Of a stretch of 8,429 nt of DNA, positions 1-8,429 are shown one piece after another. This stretch comes from a virus (Duplodnaviria > Heunggongvirae > Uroviricota > Caudoviricetes). The stretch is from the IMG/VR virus record IMGVR_UViG_3300029590_000173, positions 1-8,429 of that record; one strand, given 5' to 3'. Below the pieces are notes generated by a model. The model ran no database searches. It was not told where the DNA came from and saw nothing but the letters and a program-made list of their open reading frames with translations. Made by a program: the position numbers and the translations under genes. How positions within the stretch are numbered: the first letter of the stretch is position 1; every line of letters begins with the position of its first letter.

Positions 1-17
1 AAGTTGGCAGCATCACC
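1..17 (-). mobile_element. Terminal 17 bp of a second IS1 copy (left inverted repeat, reverse-complemented); the body of that copy lies upstream of the window
   Basis: Bases 1-17 (AAGTTGGCAGCATCACC) are the exact reverse complement of bases 2473-2489 (GGTGATGCTGCCAACTT), the left end of the complete IS1 in this window. Only 17 bp are visible, so full versus solo end cannot be decided. Confidence 0.7.
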
Positions 18-288
18 CGAAATCACTTCATCAAGCACGTGTGTTGATGAGTACTTCAGGATCGGGTCGACGATCAAAACTGACCGGGTAATAGAACTGG
101 ATGGGGTAACTTACCCATATGTTACAATTGACGTTTCTTCTAAGTCGCATCCGTTCTATACAGGCAAACTGAGAACTGTTGCTTCAGAAGGTAATGTTGC
201 ACGCTTTACCCAGCGTTTTGGGCGTTTTGGGCGTTTTGGGCGTTTTGGGCGTTTTGGGCGTTTTGTTGATGCGAAAAAAGGCGGCTGA
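18..288 (+). CDS. rpmE2: 50S ribosomal protein L31 type B (RpmE2/YkgM-like), 3' fragment with a C-terminal (GRF)n expansion; 5' end abuts the IS1 end
   Basis: The translation ...[62 protein letters not shown]...KKGG matches my recollection of the non-zinc L31 paralog YkgM over about 65 residues. The stop is TGA at 286-288. The frame stays open back through the IS1 end to base 1, so the true start is not in the window. No rpmJ2/ykgO-like gene follows. Confidence 0.75.
214..265 (+). repeat. Perfect tandem repeat of the 9-bp unit CGTTTTGGG, 5 full copies plus a 7-bp partial copy, in frame within the L31B coding sequence
   Basis: Counted directly: units at 214-222, 223-231, 232-240, 241-249 and 250-258, then CGTTTTG at 259-265. 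The repeat encodes RFG/GRF repeats. Confidence 0.95.
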
Positions 289-589
289 TTTCGCCGCAAA
301 GGTGCGTTTGACAATTTTAAAACGGACCGGACAGAGAGAGCCTGCACCTGAATATACTGAGGTAGCCCGTCCCTCCGGGGCGTGCAGATGATCCCGTCAC
401 CAGAAGATTGCGGACCTCTCTGAAAACCAGTACATTACGCGCGGGTGCCTTTCGGCTGACGGCTGGAAGGATTACCTGAAGGCCGGATGTGGAAAGGCCC
501 CGGAAAACATCTCTGTTTAGCCGAGGCCCTAATCTACATACCTTTAGCAAGTAGAAGGTTAGCGCCTCTTTGAAAAAGGAGCAAGCGCT

Positions 590-730
590 ATGCCGCAAAA
601 AACGATCATCGTGAGCATTTTATGCTTAACCATGTTGTTGACCGTCTGGATGATACATCGTTCACCATGTGAATTCAGACTTAACATCATGTGGTCAGAA
701 TTTGCGGCGTTCTTGCAGTGTAAACCGTAA
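590..730 (+). CDS. Small hydrophobic protein (46 aa), Hok/Gef-family-like type I toxin candidate
   Basis: The ORF ATG 590 to TAA 728-730 was not in the supplied track because it is below the length cut-off. Translation: MPQKTIIVSILCLTMLLTVWMIHRSPCEFRLNIMWSEFAAFLQCKP. AGGAG at 577-581 sits 8 nt before the ATG. It has one N-terminal transmembrane segment followed by R-S-P-C-E-F-R and S-E-F-A-A-F, which resemble the Hok motifs R-K-x-L-C-E-I-R and E-V-A-A-F as I recall them. A GC-rich hairpin and an intrinsic terminator follow. Confidence 0.5.
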   Translation: MPQKTIIVSILCLTMLLTVWMIHRSPCEFRLNIMWSEFAAFLQCKP

Positions 731-824
731 GAAACCGCAGCGGGGGTGAAAGCCCCCGCTATCCGGTTGCCGAAGGTTCGGTCGAAAGCCGCACCCGTGC
801 ATGCAAGTGACAAAGAAAAAACAA

Positions 825-858
825 AGCCCGCAGCGTAAAAACTGCGGGCTTTTTTATT
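825..858 (+). terminator. Rho-independent terminator downstream of the hok-like ORF
   Basis: Stem AGCCCGCAG (825-833), loop CGTAAAAA, stem CTGCGGGCT (842-850), followed by TTTTT-ATT. Confidence 0.65.
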
Positions 859-896
859 CACATACCGAAGGTGTGGTAACTGCCTGGGTTCAGACC

Positions 897-921
897 AAAA
901 AAAGCCCCATAAAATGGGGCT
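897..921 (-). terminator. Rho-independent terminator for leftward (minus-strand) transcription, convergent with the plus-strand terminator
   Basis: On the minus strand: AGCCCCA, loop TTTTA, TGGGGCT, then TTTTTTT (the plus strand shows an A-run at 897-903). It lies about 300 nt downstream of the minus-strand operon end at 1217. Confidence 0.55.
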
Positions 922-1067
922 GAAGATTCTGTAAGGAATTTCACAGCAATGAGATTCTAGTCTCTTCCAATGATATATGAGTCTTCAGCCTGAATCAATG
1001 GGGCATGACTGTGAATCCACCGACGATCAAAACTTGCACAATGCCTGAAGTTGAGTTAGAAAAGTAC

Positions 1068-1128
1068 CGGGCGCGATATCCGGTTTATTTTTTGTTGCTG
1101 TGTTTTGCCTCGTGCCGGATATCGCGTC
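1068..1128. repeat. Imperfect 15-bp inverted repeat (GGGCGCGATATCCGG ... CCGGATATCGCGTCC) separated by a 31-nt T-rich spacer
   Basis: Arms at 1068-1082 and 1114-1128 are reverse complements at 14 of 15 positions. Each arm contains GATATC. Function unknown; possible large hairpin or protein-binding site at the GC/AT transition. Confidence 0.5.
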
Positions 1129-1216
1129 CACCGTCTTTCTGATGATTCTTATGAAATCGTACTTTATTGATTTACTGCCATCCTGGTTTGTCTTTTTATG
1201 TTCATTATTGCGACAG

Positions 1217-1612
1217 TCATTTCCTGTTTCTGGTGATGTTTTGATAAAAGTGAAAGAATAAAACGATCATTGCAGAAGGTATTGCTAAAACCATACATAT
1301 CATTATATAAACAAGATGAAAATGATATATACCATAAGACCAGAAAAAAGGTTTTTTCCAGAATGATATGGATGTGTATTTTAGTGTAATTGTTTTTGTC
1401 AGGTATATTGAACAAGGAAGAGCCAGGCCACTGAGTATCAGAAATAAGTCAACTTTTATCGATGCTTCTGTTGGTGTGTCATATATAAGATGCAATATGG
1501 ATATTATAATGGGGCACATTCCCCACAGGATATTTTTGAAATAGAATTTCCGGTTCATATGTTTATGCTCTTTGGTTTTATCCCGGGAATTGGCGCTTTG
1601 TTTTTTATTCAT
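1217..1612 (-). CDS. Hypothetical multi-pass membrane protein (131 aa, about 3 predicted transmembrane helices), low-GC, second gene of a two-gene operon
   Basis: Track ORF. The start overlaps the stop of the upstream ORF by 8 nt (ATG at 1612-1610 versus stop at 1607-1605). Hydrophobic stretches include ILWGMCPIIISILHLIY, VDLFLILSGLALPCSIYL and YGIYHFHLVYIMICMVLAIPSAMIVLFF. An alternative start at the internal Met (codon 18) is possible. No family recognised. Confidence 0.55.
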   Translation of the reverse strand: MNKKQSANSRDKTKEHKHMNRKFYFKNILWGMCPIIISILHLIYDTPTEASIKVDLFLILSGLALPCSIYLTKTITLKYTSISFWKKPFFWSYGIYHFHLVYIMICMVLAIPSAMIVLFFHFYQNITRNRK

Positions 1613-2276
1613 GAACGTTTTCGTTGTTTAATAACCATGGGGTATTATGATTATCCTTTATTTTTGATATGTAATTGTCAATAGTGGATTTCGTTTCATT
1701 ATTGTGGTTATAGTAATCATGAAGAGTGCAAAACACATCATCTTTTATTGTGGCGATTAATGGGGCTTGTGTGAGGGTAAAATATAAAGAACGATTACTT
1801 AGTGTCCTGAAATAAATTTTTTCGCCAATGACCAGATCGGTGTTCATTATATTGTAGCCTATTTCAAATATATTGTTTGATGGCATGTGTAATACATATG
1901 TGGGGTATTTGTTGTGTTTTTTCATTAAATAATAAATAAAATCAGATACAGGCATCTGTTTTAGTTTTTTTTGCATCTTCCTTATGTGTTGTGACATTAA
2001 TATCATTTTCGAGAGAATGCATAAGAGACTAAACAAGAGATTAAATACTATGTTCAGTACTATCAGAGTAACAAACAGGCCAATGCTCCTTAGCGCTGAA
2101 AATATATTGTCATTGTAAATATACTGGAATGTATATCCGGCTGATAAAAATGCCAATATATATAACACTATGTCTGTTTTATTTCGCTTTTTTATTTTGT
2201 AGGTTATTGCTGATTTTAAGAATAAGATGGCAATAAGAGCAGTGATAACCCAGAAAAATATAACGGAAACTTCCAT
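1605..2276 (-). CDS. Hypothetical membrane protein (223 aa): three N-terminal transmembrane helices plus a ~130-aa Asn/Lys/Tyr-rich soluble C-terminal domain; low-GC; first gene of the operon
   Basis: Track ORF. ATG at 2276-2274 with a weak AAGG upstream. Transmembrane segments around residues 3-20, 36-54 and 65-88. GC content is about 28%, against roughly 50% in the flanking DNA. No family recognised. Confidence 0.6.
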   Translation of the reverse strand: MEVSVIFFWVITALIAILFLKSAITYKIKKRNKTDIVLYILAFLSAGYTFQYIYNDNIFSALRSIGLFVTLIVLNIVFNLLFSLLCILSKMILMSQHIRKMQKKLKQMPVSDFIYYLMKKHNKYPTYVLHMPSNNIFEIGYNIMNTDLVIGEKIYFRTLSNRSLYFTLTQAPLIATIKDDVFCTLHDYYNHNNETKSTIDNYISKIKDNHNTPWLLNNENVHE

Positions 2277-2326
2277 AATTATACCTTTATCGTGTTTTCA
2301 GGGAGGTAATTTATCATTGTGCTGAT

Positions 2327-2346
2327 ATGCATGTAAATACATGCAT
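2327..2346. promoter_or_regulatory. Perfect 20-bp palindrome ATGCATGTA-AA-TACATGCAT, 51-70 bp upstream of the 223-aa membrane-protein gene; candidate operator in its promoter region
   Basis: The 9-bp arms are exact reverse complements with a 2-bp spacer. It lies in the 196-bp AT-rich gap between the ORF start (2276) and the IS1 left end (2473). Confidence 0.45.
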
Positions 2347-2527
2347 TATCTGTTTCTTATATTCTTTTTATGAAGTTACTGATTAATTTATATTAAAACA
2401 ACACATTCATAATGAAATCAACATGTTCATATGGTTGACGGCAGATTTCTCTTTTTGTTAACCTGCATCTGCGGTGATGCTGCCAACTTACTGATTTAGT
2501 GTATGATGGTGTTTTTGAGGTGCTCCA

Positions 2528-2803
2528 GTGGCTTCTGTTTCTATCAGCTGTCCCTCCTGTTCAGCTACTGACGGGGTGGTGCGTAACGGCAAAAGCACCG
2601 CCGGACATCAGCGCTATCTCTGCTCTCACTGCCGTAAAACATGGCAACTGCAGTTCACTTACACCGCTTCTCAACCCGGTACGCACCAGAAAATCATTGA
2701 TATGGCCATGAATGGCGTTGGATGCCGGGCAACCGCCCGCATTATGGGCGTTGGCCTCAACACGATTTTCCGCCATTTAAAAAACTCAGGCCGCAGTCGG
2801 TAA
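2528..2803 (+). CDS. insA: IS1 InsA protein (transposition inhibitor and N-terminal part of the InsAB' transposase)
   Basis: The 91-aa translation [43 protein letters not shown]... is the canonical InsA with its zinc-finger Cys motifs. Confidence 0.95.
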
Positions 2804-3225
2804 CCTCGCGCATACAGCCGGGCAGTGACGTCATCGTCTGCGCGGAAATGGACGAACAGTGGGGATACGTCGGGGCTAAATCGCGCCAGCGCTGGCTGTT
2901 TTACGCGTATGACAGGCTCCGGAAGACGGTTGTTGCGCACGTATTCGGTGAACGCACTATGGCGACGCTGGGGCGTCTTATGAGCCTGCTGTCACCCTTT
3001 GACGTGGTGATATGGATGACGGATGGCTGGCCGCTGTATGAATCCCGCCTGAAGGGAAAGCTGCACGTAATCAGCAAGCGATATACGCAGCGAATTGAGC
3101 GGCATAACCTGAATCTGAGGCAGCACCTGGCACGGCTGGGACGGAAGTCGCTGTCGTTCTCAAAATCGGTGGAGCTGCATGACAAAGTCATCGGGCATTA
3201 TCTGAACATAAAACACTATCAATAA
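2722..3225 (+). CDS. insB: IS1 InsB reading frame (expressed as the InsAB' transposase by a -1 frameshift at the A6C site)
   Basis: The track ORF translation ...[44 protein letters not shown]... is canonical IS1 InsB. The frameshift site lies at 2779-2785. Confidence 0.9.
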
Positions 3226-3240
3226 GTTGGAGTCATTACC

Positions 3241-3586
3241 TGAAGCGTTAATGCATGATGCAACAGAAGCGTATTGCCAGGACATCCCTGCTCCACTGAA
3301 ACGCCTTCTTCCTGACTATAAACGGATGGAAGAAAAAATAGACGCCGTAATCCGTGAGAAATACGGGTTACCTCCTGTTATGAGCACGCCAGTGAAATAT
3401 GCCGATCTCATTATGCTGGCAACCGAACGTCGCGATCTCGGGCTTGATGATGGCTCTTTCTGGCCTGTACTGGAAGGTATCCCGGCGACAGAGATGTTCA
3501 AAGTTATTCCACTGTCACCAGGCCATGCCTACGGGATGTTTATGGAACGTTTTAACGAGTTATCGGAGTTACGCAAATGCGCATGA
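3241..3586 (+). pseudogene. 3' remnant of an HD-domain phosphohydrolase-like prophage gene, decapitated by the IS1 insertion
   Basis: The reading frame runs uninterrupted from inside the IS1 right end, and the apparent start at 3227 is IS1 sequence. The remaining translation begins PEALMHDATEAYCQDIPAPLKRLLPDY..., which carries an HD-type metal-binding motif (H-D-x-x-E-x-x-x-x-D-I-P). The N-terminal half is missing. Confidence 0.5.
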
Positions 3587-3939
3587 ATGTTTTCGAAATG
3601 GAAGGGTTTCTTCGCGGGAAATGTGTACCACGAGATCTGAAAGTGAATGAAACAAATGCTGAGTACCTGGTACGTAAATTCGATGCGCTTGAAGCTAAAT
3701 GTGCGGCACTGGAAAACAAAATAATACCAGTGTCAGCTGAACTGCCGCCAGCAAATGAAAGTGTTCTGTTATTTGATGCTAACGGAGAAGGCTGGCTAAT
3801 TGGCTGGCGTTCTCTCTGGTACACCTGGGGACAAAAAGAAACCGGAGAATGGCTGTGGACATTTCAGGTCGGGGACCTTGAAAACGTCAATATCACTCAC
3901 TGGGCAGTAATGCCGAAAGCACCGAAGAATAAAAAATGA
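3577..3939 (+). CDS. Prophage protein with a C-terminal Trp-rich domain resembling DUF551
   Basis: Track ORF with GGAG 8 nt upstream; it overlaps the previous stop. The C-terminus GEGWLIGWRSLWYTWGQKETGEWLWTFQ...ITHWAVMPKAPK fits the Trp-rich phage domain I recall as DUF551 (ending THWMPLP-like). Confidence 0.5.
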   Translation: MRMNVFEMEGFLRGKCVPRDLKVNETNAEYLVRKFDALEAKCAALENKIIPVSAELPPANESVLLFDANGEGWLIGWRSLWYTWGQKETGEWLWTFQVGDLENVNITHWAVMPKAPKNKK

Positions 3940-4139
3940 GCGTGATAAAAACTCATACAGGAATTGTTATCACCCGAGACGGTCCGCAGGTAAAAAAACT
4001 GCACCAGACAAAGCGGATGTGGGTCGTCGGAAAAAACGAGTTTTACCACAAAGAAACCGGACGCCGCCACTTTGCAGAAAATACTCGCCGCCGACTGCTG
4101 ATCGATACCATCAAGCCTATCGAGGTGAAGCATGTTTAA
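3936..4139 (+). CDS. Hypothetical prophage protein (67 aa)
   Basis: Track ORF. Its ATG overlaps the upstream stop (ATGA), typical of translationally coupled phage operons. No family recognised. Confidence 0.4.
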   Translation: MSVIKTHTGIVITRDGPQVKKLHQTKRMWVVGKNEFYHKETGRRHFAENTRRRLLIDTIKPIEVKHV

Positions 4140-4371
4140 ACAGAACGAAAAATCTATCGCTCAAATTGCTGAGTATATCCCGCGTGCGTGCCGGGATATG
4201 CAGTTGCAGGAAGCCAAAGCACGCCTGGAGAAAAAAATTGCGCTCTATATCGATGACGGCTGTGATGCCGCCGTTCTTAACGCGGCGTTCGCGCCAGCTC
4301 TTAACAGTCATACGCGAAAGTCTTTTTTTTCGTGCATCGCAGCGCAGATCCGTAAAGGAGGCAACCAGTGA
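4132..4371 (+). CDS. Hypothetical prophage protein (79 aa)
   Basis: Track ORF. Its start overlaps the upstream stop (ATGTTTAA) and its stop overlaps the next gene's GTG start. No family recognised. Confidence 0.4.
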   Translation: MFKQNEKSIAQIAEYIPRACRDMQLQEAKARLEKKIALYIDDGCDAAVLNAAFAPALNSHTRKSFFSCIAAQIRKGGNQ

Positions 4372-4967
4372 GCAACATTAACTATCAGGTACTGCGTGAA
4401 AAGGCAGAGAAAGCAACTAAAGGAAGCTACATCGTAGGGCATACATCTGTTAACCAACACGGCAATTTAACAGGAGTTTTTGTTTGTCAAAAATGGAAAG
4501 GAGAACCCGGTGGCGTAATTGCAGAATGTCACGTTAACTGCCTGGTTGAAACAGATGCTCAGGCTTATGCAAACGCTGAATTCATAGCAGAGGCTAACCC
4601 GGCTACCGTGCTGGCACTGCTGGATGAACAGGAAAGAAACCAGCAATACATCAAACGCCGCGACCAGGAGAACGAGGATATTGCGCTAACGGTAGGGAAG
4701 CTGCGCGTTGAGCTTGAGGAGACAAAATCAAAACTCAACGAGCAGCGCGAGTATTACGAGGGAGTTATCTCTGATGGGTGCAAGCGTATTGCTGAACTGG
4801 AAGCGCGGGAAGTTCAATTACCGACTCGCTACGACCTTCGATATGGACACCCGATAAATGCAGATGAGCGACAAGTCATGATACCTAAAGAAAATGGCAG
4901 TTGGCTTTACCTGATTGACCTAGAACACGCATTACGCGTCGCTGACATTCGCATCAAAGGAGAGTGA
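4368..4967 (+). CDS. Ead/Ea22-like prophage accessory protein (199 aa)
   Basis: GTG start with a strong AAGGAGG 6 nt upstream. The N-terminus MSNINYQVLREKAEKATKG... and the central coiled-coil region match my recollection of lambdoid Ead/Ea22-like proteins encoded between int/xis and the recombination genes. Confidence 0.55.
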   Translation: MSNINYQVLREKAEKATKGSYIVGHTSVNQHGNLTGVFVCQKWKGEPGGVIAECHVNCLVETDAQAYANAEFIAEANPATVLALLDEQERNQQYIKRRDQENEDIALTVGKLRVELEETKSKLNEQREYYEGVISDGCKRIAELEAREVQLPTRYDLRYGHPINADERQVMIPKENGSWLYLIDLEHALRVADIRIKGE

Positions 4968-4968
4968 T

Positions 4969-5484
4969 ATGGCGTTAACACACCACGAACTCTGTCAGAT
5001 TGCGTACAAGTTCCTTAAGCGCAACGGGTTCAAGGTTTGCTTTCATGACCGCTTTGTTGCTGTAACCAGTACCGGAGAACAGCCAGATGCTATGGGATTC
5101 AGAAATTCAGCATCATGCCTGATAGAGGCGAAGTGTTCTCGTGCTGACTTGTTGGCAGATAGAAAAAAGCGTTTCCGTAAAAATCCCTCACTTGGCATGG
5201 GCGACTGGCGATTCTTTATTAGTGAGCCGGAAATTATTTCAGTTGAGGATTTACCTCCCGGCTGGGGATTACTTCACGTTGTTAACGGAAGAGTACGGAA
5301 AGTACATGGATGGCCCAGGGGTAATTGCTGTTGGGGTAATCCTGACGATAAGCCATTTACTGGGAATAAGCAGGTTGAATGCGATTACATGTTATCTGCA
5401 TTAAGGCGCATGGAGTTGAGAGGGCACCTTAATGAAATATATGACGGTGTGATTGTTAATAAGAAAGAAGGAAACGCGGCATGA
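4969..5484 (+). CDS. Hypothetical prophage protein (171 aa); possible PD-(D/E)xK nuclease fold
   Basis: AGGAG 6 nt upstream; starts 1 nt after the Ea22-like stop. The sequence contains ...GEQPDAMGF...CLIEAKCSRADL..., which is compatible with a PD-x(n)-E-x-K catalytic motif. This is a motif-level inference only. Confidence 0.35.
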   Translation: MALTHHELCQIAYKFLKRNGFKVCFHDRFVAVTSTGEQPDAMGFRNSASCLIEAKCSRADLLADRKKRFRKNPSLGMGDWRFFISEPEIISVEDLPPGWGLLHVVNGRVRKVHGWPRGNCCWGNPDDKPFTGNKQVECDYMLSALRRMELRGHLNEIYDGVIVNKKEGNAA

Positions 5485-6239
5485 TCACTATTACCAAAGG
5501 GCGACTGCTGACAATCAAGCAGTGGCGCGAAACATACGGACCGGGTAGCAACGTTGTACTGCCAGCAGAAGAAGCGGAAGAACTGGCACGAATTGCTCTG
5601 GTATCGCTGGAAGCAGAGCCGGTGGCAAAGATTATAGCTCATTACCCATTAGGAGTTGACGTAGGCAAACAAAAGTTCGTACAGGCCATTGGAGAGCTTC
5701 CTGACTTTGGCGGATATCTATTTGCCGCCCCGCCAGCGCCGGTAGTGCCGGAAGAAGCAACTCCGGAAAACGTAGAAATGCTCTCTGGCTATGTTTCCAC
5801 GTACAAATTAACCGATAGCGAGCGCGATATTGCTGCCGAAATATGGAACGCCTGCCGCACCGCCATGCTTCAGTCCGGAAACTTTCGGGAAAGCAAGAAT
5901 TCGTCAACCAATAATTTTCGGGAAATCCCGGAAGCGTCAACCAGCTCTCCGGTAACTCCGGCTCTTCTGCCTGGTGGTTTCACCATTGAGGAGGCGAAGG
6001 AATTACATGAAGACCTGGTACGCAGCCACATAAGCAAGGCCTTAAGTGGCGAAAAGATGAAAAAGAAAGATCGCGATGCTGATTTGCGCTGGATTCATGG
6101 CGTTATAGTTCAGGCAGCGTGGTTTGTAAAAGCATCACTGGAGCAGAATGCACTATCGGGCAACTCTCCGGTAACTCCGGATGGTTGGATAAGCTGTAGT
6201 GAGCGAATGCCGGACGACAGGCAGGAGGTGAATCAATGA
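5481..6239 (+). CDS. Hypothetical prophage protein (252 aa) with internal short repeats and a C-terminus that looks like the start of a DUF551-type domain
   Basis: ATG overlaps the upstream stop (ATGA) with GAAGGA upstream. It contains exact 17-bp direct repeats at 5945-5961 and 6164-6180 (encoding SPVTP) and ends ...SPVTPDGWISCSERMPDD before the stop at 6237-6239. Confidence 0.5.
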   Translation: MITITKGRLLTIKQWRETYGPGSNVVLPAEEAEELARIALVSLEAEPVAKIIAHYPLGVDVGKQKFVQAIGELPDFGGYLFAAPPAPVVPEEATPENVEMLSGYVSTYKLTDSERDIAAEIWNACRTAMLQSGNFRESKNSSTNNFREIPEASTSSPVTPALLPGGFTIEEAKELHEDLVRSHISKALSGEKMKKKDRDADLRWIHGVIVQAAWFVKASLEQNALSGNSPVTPDGWISCSERMPDDRQEVNQ

Positions 6240-6319
6240 GCTGGCCTGATGCAATCGTAACTCTGGGGGTGGTATTCGCAGCAGCGTTTGTTGTGTTCTC
6301 GATTTGTCGATGGGGATAA
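6236..6319 (+). CDS. Small single-transmembrane peptide (27 aa, MSWPDAIVTLGVVFAAAFVVFSICRWG); candidate host-targeting small membrane peptide
   Basis: Not in the track because it is short. AGGAGG at 6222-6227 sits 8 nt before ATG 6236. The ATG overlaps the upstream stop (ATGA), and the stop TAA at 6317-6319 lies 4 nt before the next ATG (6324). Confidence 0.4.
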   Translation: MSWPDAIVTLGVVFAAAFVVFSICRWG

Positions 6320-6323
6320 CCAC

Positions 6324-6566
6324 ATGTTCGCTTTGATTCAACGCGGTCAGATATACACGGACAGAGCCGGATACCCCGTGGTGATTACTCGCATCACTGA
6401 GCACTCAGTGTTCTTTCGACGGGTGGACGGACGATCCGGGCGGGTACGCATTGGTGAGTTAAACTGCCTGTTCGAACATATTGACCACCAGGAGTACCGC
6501 AAAATTCTCGCGGACACTGAGCAGGAAAAGCACCTGAAAAAATTACGAGCCATAAAAAGGAAGTAA
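6324..6566 (+). CDS. Hypothetical prophage protein (81 aa from ATG 6324; the track's TTG start at 6288 is less likely)
   Basis: Track ORF 6288..6566. The ATG at 6324 follows the small-peptide stop by 4 nt. Translation: MFALIQRGQIYTDRAGYPVVITRITEHSVFFRRVDGRSGRVRIGELNCLFEHIDHQEYRK... No family assigned with confidence. Confidence 0.45.
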   Translation: MFALIQRGQIYTDRAGYPVVITRITEHSVFFRRVDGRSGRVRIGELNCLFEHIDHQEYRKILADTEQEKHLKKLRAIKRK

Positions 6567-6569
6567 AGA

Positions 6570-6704
6570 ATGAATAAAGCATTTGAACGATGGGTCCACC
6601 AGCGTTACGGCAATCACTATGACCTGACGCGAGATGTTGATGGCTTCTACTGTCGTGAAGTTGTGAAGCGAATGTTTGAAATGTGGTGCCACTGCCGTGG
6701 ATGA
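6570..6704 (+). CDS. Small Cys/His-containing protein (44 aa, MNKAFERWVHQRYGNHYDLTRDVDGFYCREVVKRMFEMWCHCRG)
   Basis: Not in the track because it is short. AAGGAAG lies about 7 nt upstream, and the ATG is 4 nt after the previous stop. C-x(13)-C-H-C could be a metal-binding knuckle. Weak call. Confidence 0.3.
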   Translation: MNKAFERWVHQRYGNHYDLTRDVDGFYCREVVKRMFEMWCHCRG

Positions 6705-6722
6705 AAGTTTTATGAGGTTGGC

Positions 6723-6977
6723 ATGCAGACAATCATCTATCAGATAACCCCCAGCAAATGGTGTACGGAGAGAGTCCTTATTGCATCAACAGGGCTAAAG
6801 CCCGGCACCATCGAGCGGGCCAGAAGAAAGTCATGGATGCAGGGAAAAGAATACCGCCATTACGCTGTAGAAGGTGATCCTGGGCATTACAGTGAATGCC
6901 TGTACAACATCGAAGAAATTATGCGATGGATCGAAAACCAGAAACAACCAGGTGCCAAAAATGCAAGTTCCGGTTAA
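6723..6977 (+). CDS. xis: Excisionase-like (Xis) protein, 84 aa
   Basis: It sits immediately upstream of int and is co-oriented with it, the canonical xis position. The N-terminus MQTIIYQITPSKWCTERV... resembles the putative-excisionase family of enterobacterial prophages as I recall it. Confidence 0.5.
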   Translation: MQTIIYQITPSKWCTERVLIASTGLKPGTIERARRKSWMQGKEYRHYAVEGDPGHYSECLYNIEEIMRWIENQKQPGAKNASSG

Positions 6978-7010
6978 CCTGTTAATGCTCCTGGACGTCT
7001 GGGAGGTTTA

Positions 7011-8315
7011 ATGAGTAACGTATCATACCCGACAGGCGTTGAAAACCATGGAGGATCACTCCGTATATGGTTTCACTATAATGGCAAACGTGTCAGAGAA
7101 AACCTCGGTGTTCCTGACACCGCCAAAAACCGGAAGATCGCAGGTGAACTTCGCACTTCCGTTTGTTTTGCAATCAGAATGGGGAGTTTCGACTACGCTA
7201 CACAGTTCCCTAATTCCCCTAACCTGAAACACTTTGGTCTGGGAAAAAGAGAGATAACCGTTAAGGCACTTTCGGAAAAATGGTTGGACCTTAAGAAAAT
7301 TGAGATTTGTGCGAATGCACTTAATCGTTACCAGTCAGTAATTAAAAACATGTTGCCTATGTTGGGTGAGAAAAAACTGGTTTCATCCATAACAAAAGAG
7401 GATTTACTTTTCGCAAGGAGAGATTTGTTGACCGGTTACCAAAAGCTTTCTAATGGAAAGATTTCTTCCATAAAAGGGCGCTCAGTGGTCACAGTAAACT
7501 ACTATATGACAACCATAGCTGGAATGTTTCAATTTGCAACAGATAATGGTTATACCTCAGGAAACCCATTTAACGGTCTGGCCCCCTTAAAAAAGTCCAA
7601 GGTAAAACCAGATCCTCTCACCCGTGACGAATTTATTCGTTTTATTGAGGCTTGCCGTCATCAACAAACAAAAAACCTGTGGATTCTCGCTGTATACACG
7701 GGTATTCGTCACGGGGAGCTGGTATCGCTGGCATGGGAAGATATAGATCTTAAAGCAAGGACTATAACCATCCGTAGGAATTATACAAAACTTGGCGAAT
7801 TCACTCCACCAAAAACCGATGCTGGCACCGGAAGGACAATTCATCTGGTTCAACCAGCTATTGATGCTCTTAAAAGTCAGGCGGAAATGACCATGCTTGG
7901 AAAGCAACATTCTGTAGAGGTAAAGCAGAGGGAATATGGGAGAAGNNNNNNNNNNNNNNNNNNNNNNNNNNNNNNNNNCACTTTTGTTTTTAGTCCTCAG
8001 GTAATAAAACAGCGGCAGTTTTCCGGACCGCACTATAAGGTTGACTCCATCAGGGAGTCATGGACAAGTATCTTAAAACGCGCAGGTCTGAGACACAGAA
8101 AATCGTACCAATCCAGGCATACTTATGCATGCTGGTCACTTGCCGCTGGAGCTAATCCTAGTTTTATCGCAAGCCAGATGGGCCACACAAACGCACAAAT
8201 GGTATTCAATGTTTACGGAGCATGGATGAAAGACAACAATCACGAACAGATAGAACTCCTTAACAAAAGACTATCTGAAAGTGTCCCATGTATGCCCCAT
8301 AAGAAAGCTGGGTAA
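7011..8315 (+). CDS. int: Phage integrase, tyrosine site-specific recombinase (lambda Int family); the reading frame spans a 33-N gap
   Basis: GGGAGG Shine-Dalgarno before ATG 7011. The C-terminal catalytic region carries ...LAVYTGIRHGELVSLAWEDIDL... (Arg box) and ...HTYACWSLAAGANPSFIASQMGHTNAQMVFNVYGAWM... (H-x-x-R ... Y motifs). Ns at 7946-7978 fall inside the gene. Confidence 0.9.
   Translation: MSNVSYPTGVENHGGSLRIWFHYNGKRVRENLGVPDTAKNRKIAGELRTSVCFAIRMGSFDYATQFPNSPNLKHFGLGKREITVKALSEKWLDLKKIEICANALNRYQSVIKNMLPMLGEKKLVSSITKEDLLFARRDLLTGYQKLSNGKISSIKGRSVVTVNYYMTTIAGMFQFATDNGYTSGNPFNGLAPLKKSKVKPDPLTRDEFIRFIEACRHQQTKNLWILAVYTGIRHGELVSLAWEDIDLKARTITIRRNYTKLGEFTPPKTDAGTGRTIHLVQPAIDALKSQAEMTMLGKQHSVEVKQREYGRXXXXXXXXXXXXTFVFSPQVIKQRQFSGPHYKVDSIRESWTSILKRAGLRHRKSYQSRHTYACWSLAAGANPSFIASQMGHTNAQMVFNVYGAWMKDNNHEQIELLNKRLSESVPCMPHKKAG
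7946..7978. other. Run of 33 N (assembly gap or masked bases) inside the integrase gene
   Basis: Seen directly. Because 33 is a multiple of 3 the frame appears preserved, but the true length and content are unknown. Confidence 0.99.
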
Positions 8316-8360
8316 AATAAAAACTTGCAAAATCAATTAGTTTACCCTTAATCCCTGTCA
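8316..8360. other. Prophage-chromosome junction (attL-type) region between the integrase stop and the resumption of mlrA-like sequence
   Basis: Position immediately 3' of int, and the point where the downstream frame begins to read as MlrA (about 8354). The exact core cannot be defined without the other junction. Confidence 0.35.
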
Positions 8361-8429
8361 CGTTACGCGCGTGGCAGAGGCGTTACGGATTGCTGAAACC
8401 GCAACGGACAGACGGCGGTCATCGGCTGT
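8354..8429 (+). pseudogene. mlrA: Fragment of the MerR-family curli regulator gene mlrA (yehV), helix-turn-helix region; its 5' end is replaced by prophage sequence and it runs off the window
   Basis: The in-frame translation [25 protein letters not shown] matches the MlrA N-terminal HTH region as I remember it ([42 protein letters not shown]...). The upstream in-frame codons ([11 protein letters not shown]) do not match and contain no start codon back to the stop at 8318-8320. Confidence 0.6.

Follow-up and report, generated by a model that had tools for sequence, protein, structure and literature searches.

A complete IS1 flanked on one side by an integrative conjugative element and on the other by an mlrA prophage, with a second, inverted IS1 end nearby

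Compound transposons built from IS1 are represented by Tn9, in which the two copies are direct, and by Tn1681, in which inverted copies surround an ST enterotoxin gene. As a single insertion sequence (IS), IS1 hops locally, prefers AT-rich targets, and generates target duplications of 8 to 9 bp (PMC5009759). A missing target duplication is usually ascribed to recombination between IS copies or to adjacent deletion (PMC11708052), and joints of this kind have been described as products of homologous recombination between IS copies, adjacent deletion, and cointegrate formation (PMC5009759, PMC11708052, and PMC4173774). Here we describe an 8,429-nucleotide stretch of DNA, positions 1 to 8,429 of the IMG/VR record IMGVR_UViG_3300029590_000173 and referred to below as the window, in which a complete IS1 has DNA from an integrative conjugative element (ICE) on its left and DNA from a lambdoid prophage on its right, while the tip of a second IS1 in the inverted orientation lies at the left edge. 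We read the complete IS1 as a hybrid joint between two unrelated mobile elements, a reading that draws on comparison with genomes lacking IS1 at these sites.

The complete IS1, its two flanks, and the inverted end

By every defining feature but target duplication, the complete copy is a canonical, intact IS1. It measures 768 bp, is identical to IS1A of Escherichia coli K-12 at 761 of the 768 positions (seven differ), and has imperfect terminal repeats of about 23 bp, with 18 of 23 positions identical between the left inverted repeat (IRL) and the right inverted repeat (IRR). The motif TTAAAAAAC at 2777 is the A6C site of the −1 frameshift that joins insA and insB'; InsA matches PF03811 and PF12759 (zinc ribbon and helix-turn-helix), and the insB' frame matches PF03400 (DDE_Tnp_IS1; E = 2e-78) and NF033558. 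On these features the copy is potentially active. The 8- to 9-bp duplication expected of a simple insertion is absent, the flanking 9-mers being TGCATCTGC (2464 to 2472), in ICE DNA, and TGAAGCGTT (3241 to 3249), in prophage DNA, and we attribute its absence to the history of this copy and not to its identity as IS1.

The two flanks were traced to different sources, the IRL side to an ICE and the IRR side to a prophage, and each continues into its own element in genomes free of IS1. The 2,455 bp to the left of the complete copy, called the cargo here, run without interruption through 13 complete E. coli genomes, where neither edge of the stretch adjoins an IS1. In these genomes the stretch is collinear and is embedded among conjugative transfer genes (TraC/TraU/TraG_N) and integrase-like genes (L001, L002, and L004 to L013); its neighbors are a conjugative ATPase, TIGR03756/TIGR03757, TraU, and TraG_N on one side and an integrase-domain gene and ArdC on the other. 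These matches indicate that the cargo originates from an ICE. The IS1-free ICE reads ...ATGATATCAATCAGTAA/CGAAATCAC at the left breakpoint (a slash marks the junction, here and below) and ...CCTGCATCTGC/ATTAACTGTCGC at the right breakpoint, where the continuation is also given as ATTAACTG; since the cargo is an internal, contiguous piece of the ICE, both inner junctions lie in ICE DNA. On the prophage side, the interrupted gene is yfdR, which when intact reads ...GGAATTTGCTTT/TGAAGCGTTAATGC at the IS1 site, or equally ...TTTGCTTT/TGAAGCGTT in IS1-free genomes, so that the right end of IS1 falls at the third base of codon 64. Relatives without this IS1 keep each flank intact, but the ICE and the prophage are not contiguous in them and lie 0.9 to 3 Mb apart: G1/2, G6/7, and G8 have both on the same strand at a distance of about 3 Mb, and in SW070917 they occupy opposite strands, about 0.9 Mb from each other.

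Bases 1 to 17 are the exact reverse complement of 2473 to 2489, the left end of the complete IS1, which gives two arms of 100% complementarity separated by 2,455 nt; the chance that a given 17-mer recurs in the window is about 5e-7. The 17 bases fit the IRL (GGTGATGCTGCCAACTT) and not the IRR (GGTAATGACTCCAACTT). Just before window base 18 the ICE reads ...AATCAGTAA, and IS1 likewise reads ...AATCAGTAA/GTTGGCAGCATCACC, so 15 of the 17 bases (3 to 17) are strictly specific to IS1 and bases 1 and 2 fit either source.

Much of what the initial annotation had claimed from the window alone was borne out by these comparisons: the exact complementarity of the two ends, the assignment of both inward-facing ends to left repeats, the extent of the complete copy and its differing 9-mers, all of whose coordinates were correct, and the judgment that this copy is not a simple insertion. 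The prophage HD-domain gene that it placed at the right flank can now be named as yfdR, within a lambdoid prophage in mlrA. Two of its descriptions held in part. It had presented the cargo as bracketed, and the IRL ends do face inward, but it had missed that the cargo is one contiguous internal piece of an ICE; and what it called an rpmE2 fragment is indeed a paralogue of ribosomal protein L31 but is nearly whole, the left IS1 end having cut the gene 17 nt after its ATG, with the loss of only those first 17 nt, while the IS1 tip provides an in-frame TTG.

Recurrence of the junctions and history of the joint

None of the three IS1 junctions was present in any of 5,426 complete E. coli genomes. 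The left junction was not found in GTDB representatives, IMG/VR, or JGI metagenomes, and the IRR/yfdR junction was not found in IMG/VR; searches of plasmids with the cargo and its junctions recovered no junction, phage records offered no counterpart of the prophage arm joined to its IS1 end, and no collection searched contained sequence to the left of base 1. A pattern for the junction between the 5' part of yfdR and IS1, with either IS1 end allowed, returned nothing from metagenome or genome collections. At the protein level, the 119- and 94-amino-acid (aa) junction open reading frames (ORFs) and the integrase with the N run had no exact record, and exact look-ups of the 223-, 199-, and 131-aa proteins led back only to an ICE or a prophage in intact form. 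A literature search turned up no earlier account of the arrangement.

The right-hand junction recurs in a gut metagenome scaffold (L023; SAMN13509516) that ends 53 nt inside IS1 and has exactly the same joint, IRR/TGAAGCGTT. Beyond the joint it matches the window without a difference for 1,389 nt, the single-nucleotide polymorphisms at 3920 and 4339 are common to both and are not in the closest IS1-free relative, and the two sequences differ only at a mosaic boundary at 4630 to 4706. Judged by these shared positions, the IRR/yfdR junction apparently represents one old IS1 insertion that the window and the scaffold share by descent.

The left-hand side recurs as a fusion gene, the IS1 tip joined to the L31 paralogue, on about 15 short contigs from public E. 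coli assemblies, all of them 2.73 kb or less. Four forms were distinguished: P0035 (MBA1051025.1; MAASPE...), with two GRF repeats, on four contigs (longest, 2,728 nt); P0044 (WP_284095988.1; MSKLAASPE...), with two repeats, on three contigs (longest, 2,648 nt); P0042 (MTSSS...), with two repeats, on seven contigs (longest, 2,689 nt); and P0049 (MTSSS...), with three repeats, on one contig of 2,697 nt. A two-repeat cargo measures 2,428 nt, and the fusion contigs correspond to the cargo plus roughly 110 to 150 nt of repeat at each end, which is the pattern that short-read assemblers give for a unique segment bounded by IS copies; all of them end inside IS1 copies. These contigs show that the module bounded by IS1 is real and recurs outside this window.

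The fusion contigs also bear on a reading in which bases 1 to 17 are a 15-nt IS1 remnant left by deletion between the AATCAGTAA copies of the ICE and of IS1, with no second IS1 and no bracket. The 9-mer AATCAGTAA does stand directly to the left of the ICE breakpoint (L001, 5992 to 6000) and 15 nt inside the IS1 left end. A match of equal length within 40 nt of the breakpoint arose in 85 of 2,000 shuffles, and the coincidence may reflect target-end homology or chance; the same shuffle test gave nothing notable for homology between target and IS1 end at the other two junction sites. An insertion of 15 nt would keep the ATG of the ICE gene in frame, yet the public calls start at TTG or ATC (MAASPE... 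and MSKLAASPE...) or further in, and this avoidance of the ATG implies that the TAA of IS1 must lie upstream. The contigs moreover stop at about 2.65 to 2.73 kb, so a repeat bounds both sides. We infer that the left element is probably longer than a 17-nt remnant, and we consider the deletion reading very improbable.

For the joint itself, we see about an even chance that it was made by an IS1-mediated rearrangement and not by a single insertion. An IS1 would already have been resident in yfdR of the mlrA prophage, the IRR/TGAAGCGTT junction being the old, inherited one, and the other side of this resident copy would later have been swapped for ICE DNA ending in ...TGCATCTGC. The swap could have come about by RecA-dependent exchange with another IS1 in the ICE, by replicative transposition of IS1 into the ICE, with formation of a cointegrate with the excised circular ICE, or by an event of the adjacent-deletion type. 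The second, inverted IS1, 2,455 bp to the left, would then represent a further nearby insertion in the ICE that interrupted the L31 gene 17 nt past its start. The sequences show directly how the window is built, where each flank comes from, that relatives lack IS1 at these sites, and that two junctions occur again elsewhere; the order of events and any choice among the three routes are what we infer from them. Such a history fits the age of the IRR/yfdR junction, the abundance of IS1 in related strains (about 30 copies, with 32 to 34 places in the record), the local hopping of IS1, its 8- to 9-bp duplications and its leaning toward AT-rich targets, and the missing target duplication. It also fits the observation that IS1 has struck both the ICE region (L055) and yfdR (L048) independently. 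The layout in SW070917, followed by an inversion, would produce exactly the order seen in the window.

Several points weigh against a rearrangement. The outer flank of the left IS1 is not seen, so no route is demonstrated, and the window would look no different had a composite transposon inserted at TGAAGCGTT. Genomes of the G1/2 type have the ICE and the prophage in direct orientation, in which a simple exchange between IS1 copies deletes megabases, so an inversion would require another layout or the cointegrate route. The history calls for no fewer than three or four separate events, and the absence of reciprocal-junction proteins from the record counts against a plain reciprocal inversion.

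A one-step duplicative inversion was considered and rejected, whether placed in yfdR or within the ICE, since the inverted target copies that it predicts are missing. AACGCTTCA, which is TGAAGCGTT in reverse complement, occurs neither at 18 to 26 nor at 2464 to 2472, and the right outer flank is not the reverse complement of the ICE DNA before base 18.

The composite transposon deserves consideration as a rival in its own right. Two inverted IS1 copies would have formed a unit in the ICE, which transposed by way of its outer IRRs into yfdR at TGAAGCGTT and carried with it hok/sok, the L31 paralogue, and two small membrane-protein genes; one insertion and a local hop may have sufficed to form the unit. 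With both IRLs inward, both outer ends would be IRRs, a workable pair, of which the right one is intact and belongs to an intact and potentially active copy. A unit formed in the ICE should have ICE DNA at both inner junctions, and it does; about three events suffice, and the module recurs in some 15 assemblies as stand-alone contigs of at most 2.73 kb with 2, 3, or 5 GRF repeats. Nevertheless, the unit has not been seen in two different genomic contexts, and none of the 5,426 complete genomes carries it; only 17 nt of the left IS1 are visible, and the IRR/yfdR junction, common to L023, looks like a plain IS1 insertion. We consider transposition of such a unit unlikely, if a good deal less so than deletion to a remnant. 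The larger claim that IS1, cargo, and IS1 together constitute an active, unnamed compound transposon that moved the hok/sok module from the ICE to the prophage and circulates in several E. coli lineages is similarly doubtful, although it would account for the finding of 2.7-kb contigs, again and again, with 2, 3, or 5 GRF repeats.

The competing histories predict different sequences to the left of base 1 and different products of the 5' part of yfdR. The composite model predicts yfdR-5'...TTTGAAGCGTT/GGTAATGACTCC, the second part being IRR, with a 9-bp duplication, and GCTTTTGAAGCGTTGGTAATGACTCC as the k-mer of the yfdR-5'/IRR junction; a simple insertion of the left copy in the ICE predicts ICE sequence ...AATCAGTAACGAAATCAC/GGTAATGACTCC, with an outer flank of ICE DNA ending in CGAAATCAC. 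The other diagnostic k-mers are GCTTTTGAAGCGTTGGTGATGCTGCC (yfdR-5'/IRL), GGAGTCATTACCTGCATCTGCATTAACTG (the reciprocal IRR/ICE junction), and GTGATTTCGGGTGATGCTGCC (the reverse complement of the left junction of the window). The truncated YfdR would end in ...FEALVMLPTY and a stop if joined to IRL, by simple insertion or reciprocal exchange, and in ...FEALVMTPTY and a stop if joined to IRR, by a compound transposon. Seven N-terminal variants and duplications of 8, 9, and 10 bp were looked up among about 15 billion proteins. Neither YfdR 1-67::VMLPTY-stop nor YfdR 1-67::VMTPTY-stop is on record there, and a homology search gave only unrelated truncations. The lack of the second product tells against the composite, whereas the fusion on the L31 side is on record; taken together, the lack of both is weak evidence against every model that keeps the 5' part of yfdR beside IS1 and leans weakly toward loss of the 5' side.

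A third possibility lies in the assembly, namely, that the genome carries two ordinary IS1 insertions in the ICE and a third in yfdR, each flanked by a duplication of its own, and that a short-read assembler misjoined them through a collapsed IS1, entering it from the ICE and leaving it on the yfdR side. The window contains a run of 33 N where seven relatives carry 15 nt, so length was not preserved and the run looks like a scaffold gap, which makes a paired-end scaffold probable. The window itself begins 17 nt inside an IS1, every other assembly with these junctions breaks inside IS1 (L023 after 53 nt and the module contigs at no more than 2.73 kb), and an IS is too long for inserts of about 500 bp to bridge (PMC5009759). 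Against such a misjoin, when an assembler writes out a 768-bp repeat, read pairs have usually linked its two sides, and the product expected of the simple insertion, YfdR 1-67::VMLPTY-stop, is the one already noted as missing from the record. We regard a misjoin as improbable, somewhat more so than the composite. The alternative posed by the initial annotation, an IS1-mediated deletion or inversion on the one hand and the edge of a composite element on the other, still stands, with the short-read misjoin added to it as a third option.

On the rearrangement reading, the arrangement leaves yfdR inactivated, the ICE broken, and the hok/sok module and three small genes bracketed by two inverted IS1 copies. 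Rearrangement joints occupied by an intact IS whose flanks are unrelated are well known, part of the ordinary IS-driven shuffling of E. coli genomes, and the window is a clean example of IS1 breaking and rejoining other mobile elements, in this case an ICE and an mlrA prophage, with little import beyond annotation. If the unit were a functional compound transposon, an addiction module unconnected with resistance would have been shuttled from an ICE to a prophage, which would be of modest interest for the movement of accessory genes. A caution for annotators is that a complete IS with mismatched flanks in an N-gapped scaffold may reflect assembly and not biology.

Other features of the cargo and the prophage arm

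The features of the window are collected in Table 1.

Table 1. Features of the window and the basis on which each was assigned
Feature	Coordinates	Strand	Basis or remarks
IS1 IRL tip pointing into the cargo	1..17	-	Exact IRL match; ICE diverges exactly at 17/18
L31 fusion ORF, type B ribosomal protein L31 paralogue, 94 aa	4..288	+	PF01197, NF002462; native start in L001
Cargo, assigned to an internal contiguous segment of the ICE accessory region	18..2472		99.0 to 99.9% identity to 13 complete E. coli genomes
Tandem repeat GCGTTTTGG (9 bp per unit), coding for GRF at the L31 C terminus	213..274		Repeat finding
hok/sok-type toxin-antitoxin locus (Hok ORF, 590 to 730)	443..730	+	Pfam HOK_GEF, Rfam sok, RefSeq Hok/Gef
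131-aa ORF, about three hydrophobic helices	1217..1612	-	Called as a gene in many metagenome contigs; 33%-GC DNA
223-aa hypothetical protein WP_021531917.1, hydrophobic helices	1605..2276	-	ORF call, annotated in ICE relatives
Complete IS1	2473..3240	+	IRL 2473-2495, insA 2528-2803, A6C site 2777, insB' 2722-3225, IRR 3218-3240
yfdR 3' part (5'-deoxynucleotidase, HD domain)	3241..3586	+	Starts at third base of codon 64
Lambdoid prophage early-left arm: yfdR, ea22-like genes, xis (6723-6977), int (7011-8315), attR	3241..8347	+	Sequence comparison
N run, 33 N, inside int	7946..7978		Seven relatives carry 15 nt (TACTGTGCATAAATG) between the same flanks
Chromosomal mlrA (yehV)	8348..8429	+	98.8% identity to K-12 mlrA over 82 nt

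Within the cargo, the GCGTTTTGG repeat is a hypervariable coding repeat in an ICE-borne ribosomal-protein paralogue: the number of GRF copies among strains is 2, 3, or 5, with coding sequence lengths of 261 and 288 nt. The Hok ORF matches HOK_GEF with an E value of 1.9e-6 and a score of 27.8 against a cutoff of 22, and the sok region (443 to 600) scores 47.7 bits in Rfam, under the gathering score of 59. Between the hok locus and the low-GC block that follows it lies a strong, bidirectional, terminator-like hairpin (823 to 852), with a stem of 11 to 12 bp and T runs on both strands; it also gives weak Thr_leader matches in Rfam, which are probably spurious. The 33%-GC block (901 to 2472) contains the two overlapping minus-strand ORFs and is conserved in ICEs, and a version at 92% identity is present in O157:H7 and O111 chromosomes. 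Neither the 223-aa nor the 131-aa product had a family or defense-system match in Pfam, NCBIfam, or PADLOC.

Elsewhere, the same ICE region carries an IS1 at another position. In a 55-kb metagenome contig (L055, 4463 to 5290; JGI 3300029762, Ga0245183_100437), an IS1 has its IRL turned toward the cargo near window position 803, with an adjoining IS200/IS605-type transposase gene and unrelated DNA beyond; this is an independent IS1 event.

Many E. coli prophages, as well as phages of the VT1-Sakai/YYZ-2008 type, match the prophage arm at 94 to 99% identity, and the attR junction between prophage and mlrA lies at about 8347/8348. In a 568-nt contig (L048; GCA_907172775.1), an IS1 IRR abuts yfdR after codon 87, in the orientation opposite to that of the window copy, so yfdR has been struck by IS1 at two or more sites. 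A 10-N gap lies exactly at the TGAAGCGTT breakpoint in a different prophage, near zur/dinF/lexA (L017, 9981 to 9990; GCA_006235185.1, SQIK01000137.1), where the left contig breaks off 14 nt short of the start codon of yfdR; the gap may mark a further IS at that very nucleotide, accompanied by the loss of 205 bp. Two further yfdR truncations (L046 and L047, at about 4200) are IS-independent deletions with breakpoints 1 to 3 nt from the IS1 site, one of them lacking some 500 bp internally and the other fused to part of an integrase gene. Their clustering at this site may be a selection effect, the query having favored fragments that end there, and nothing is drawn from it. A truncated YfdR of 111 aa is called in many contigs as a result of frameshifts, stop codons, and small deletions, and the IS1 junction was found only in L023.

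Comparison with described elements

The prophage arm belongs with the mlrA prophages of the VT1-Sakai/YYZ-2008/BP-4795 type, with which it shares an int-xis-ea22 arm at 94 to 98% identity and an attR inside mlrA; it differs from them in that yfdR is cut at codon 64 by IS1 and in that no prophage DNA lies to the left of yfdR in the window. The complete IS1 likewise resembles IS1A and IS1R of E. coli K-12 in its length of 768 bp, its 23-bp imperfect repeats, its insA, its A6C −1 site, and its insB' with DDE_Tnp_IS1, whereas it lacks an 8- to 9-bp target duplication and has flanks from different mobile elements.

With the IS1 compound transposons, the locus shares a short cargo between two IS1 ends, here inverted, and an intact outer end where that end is visible. 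In contrast to them, the second IS1 is represented by 17 nt only, neither duplication of the whole unit nor a second context was seen, and the cargo consists of hok/sok, an L31 paralogue, and two small membrane-protein genes, with no resistance or toxin gene. Membership of this group is possible rather than established.

Compared with IS rearrangements lacking a target duplication (PMC5009759, PMC11708052, and PMC4173774), the window is distinguished by its partners, an ICE and a prophage, which are two mobile elements fused to each other, and its reciprocal junctions were not found. In other respects the likeness is close: an intact IS has unrelated flanks, distant regions are joined through it, the lineage is rich in IS1, and a second copy lies nearby, as local hopping would have it.

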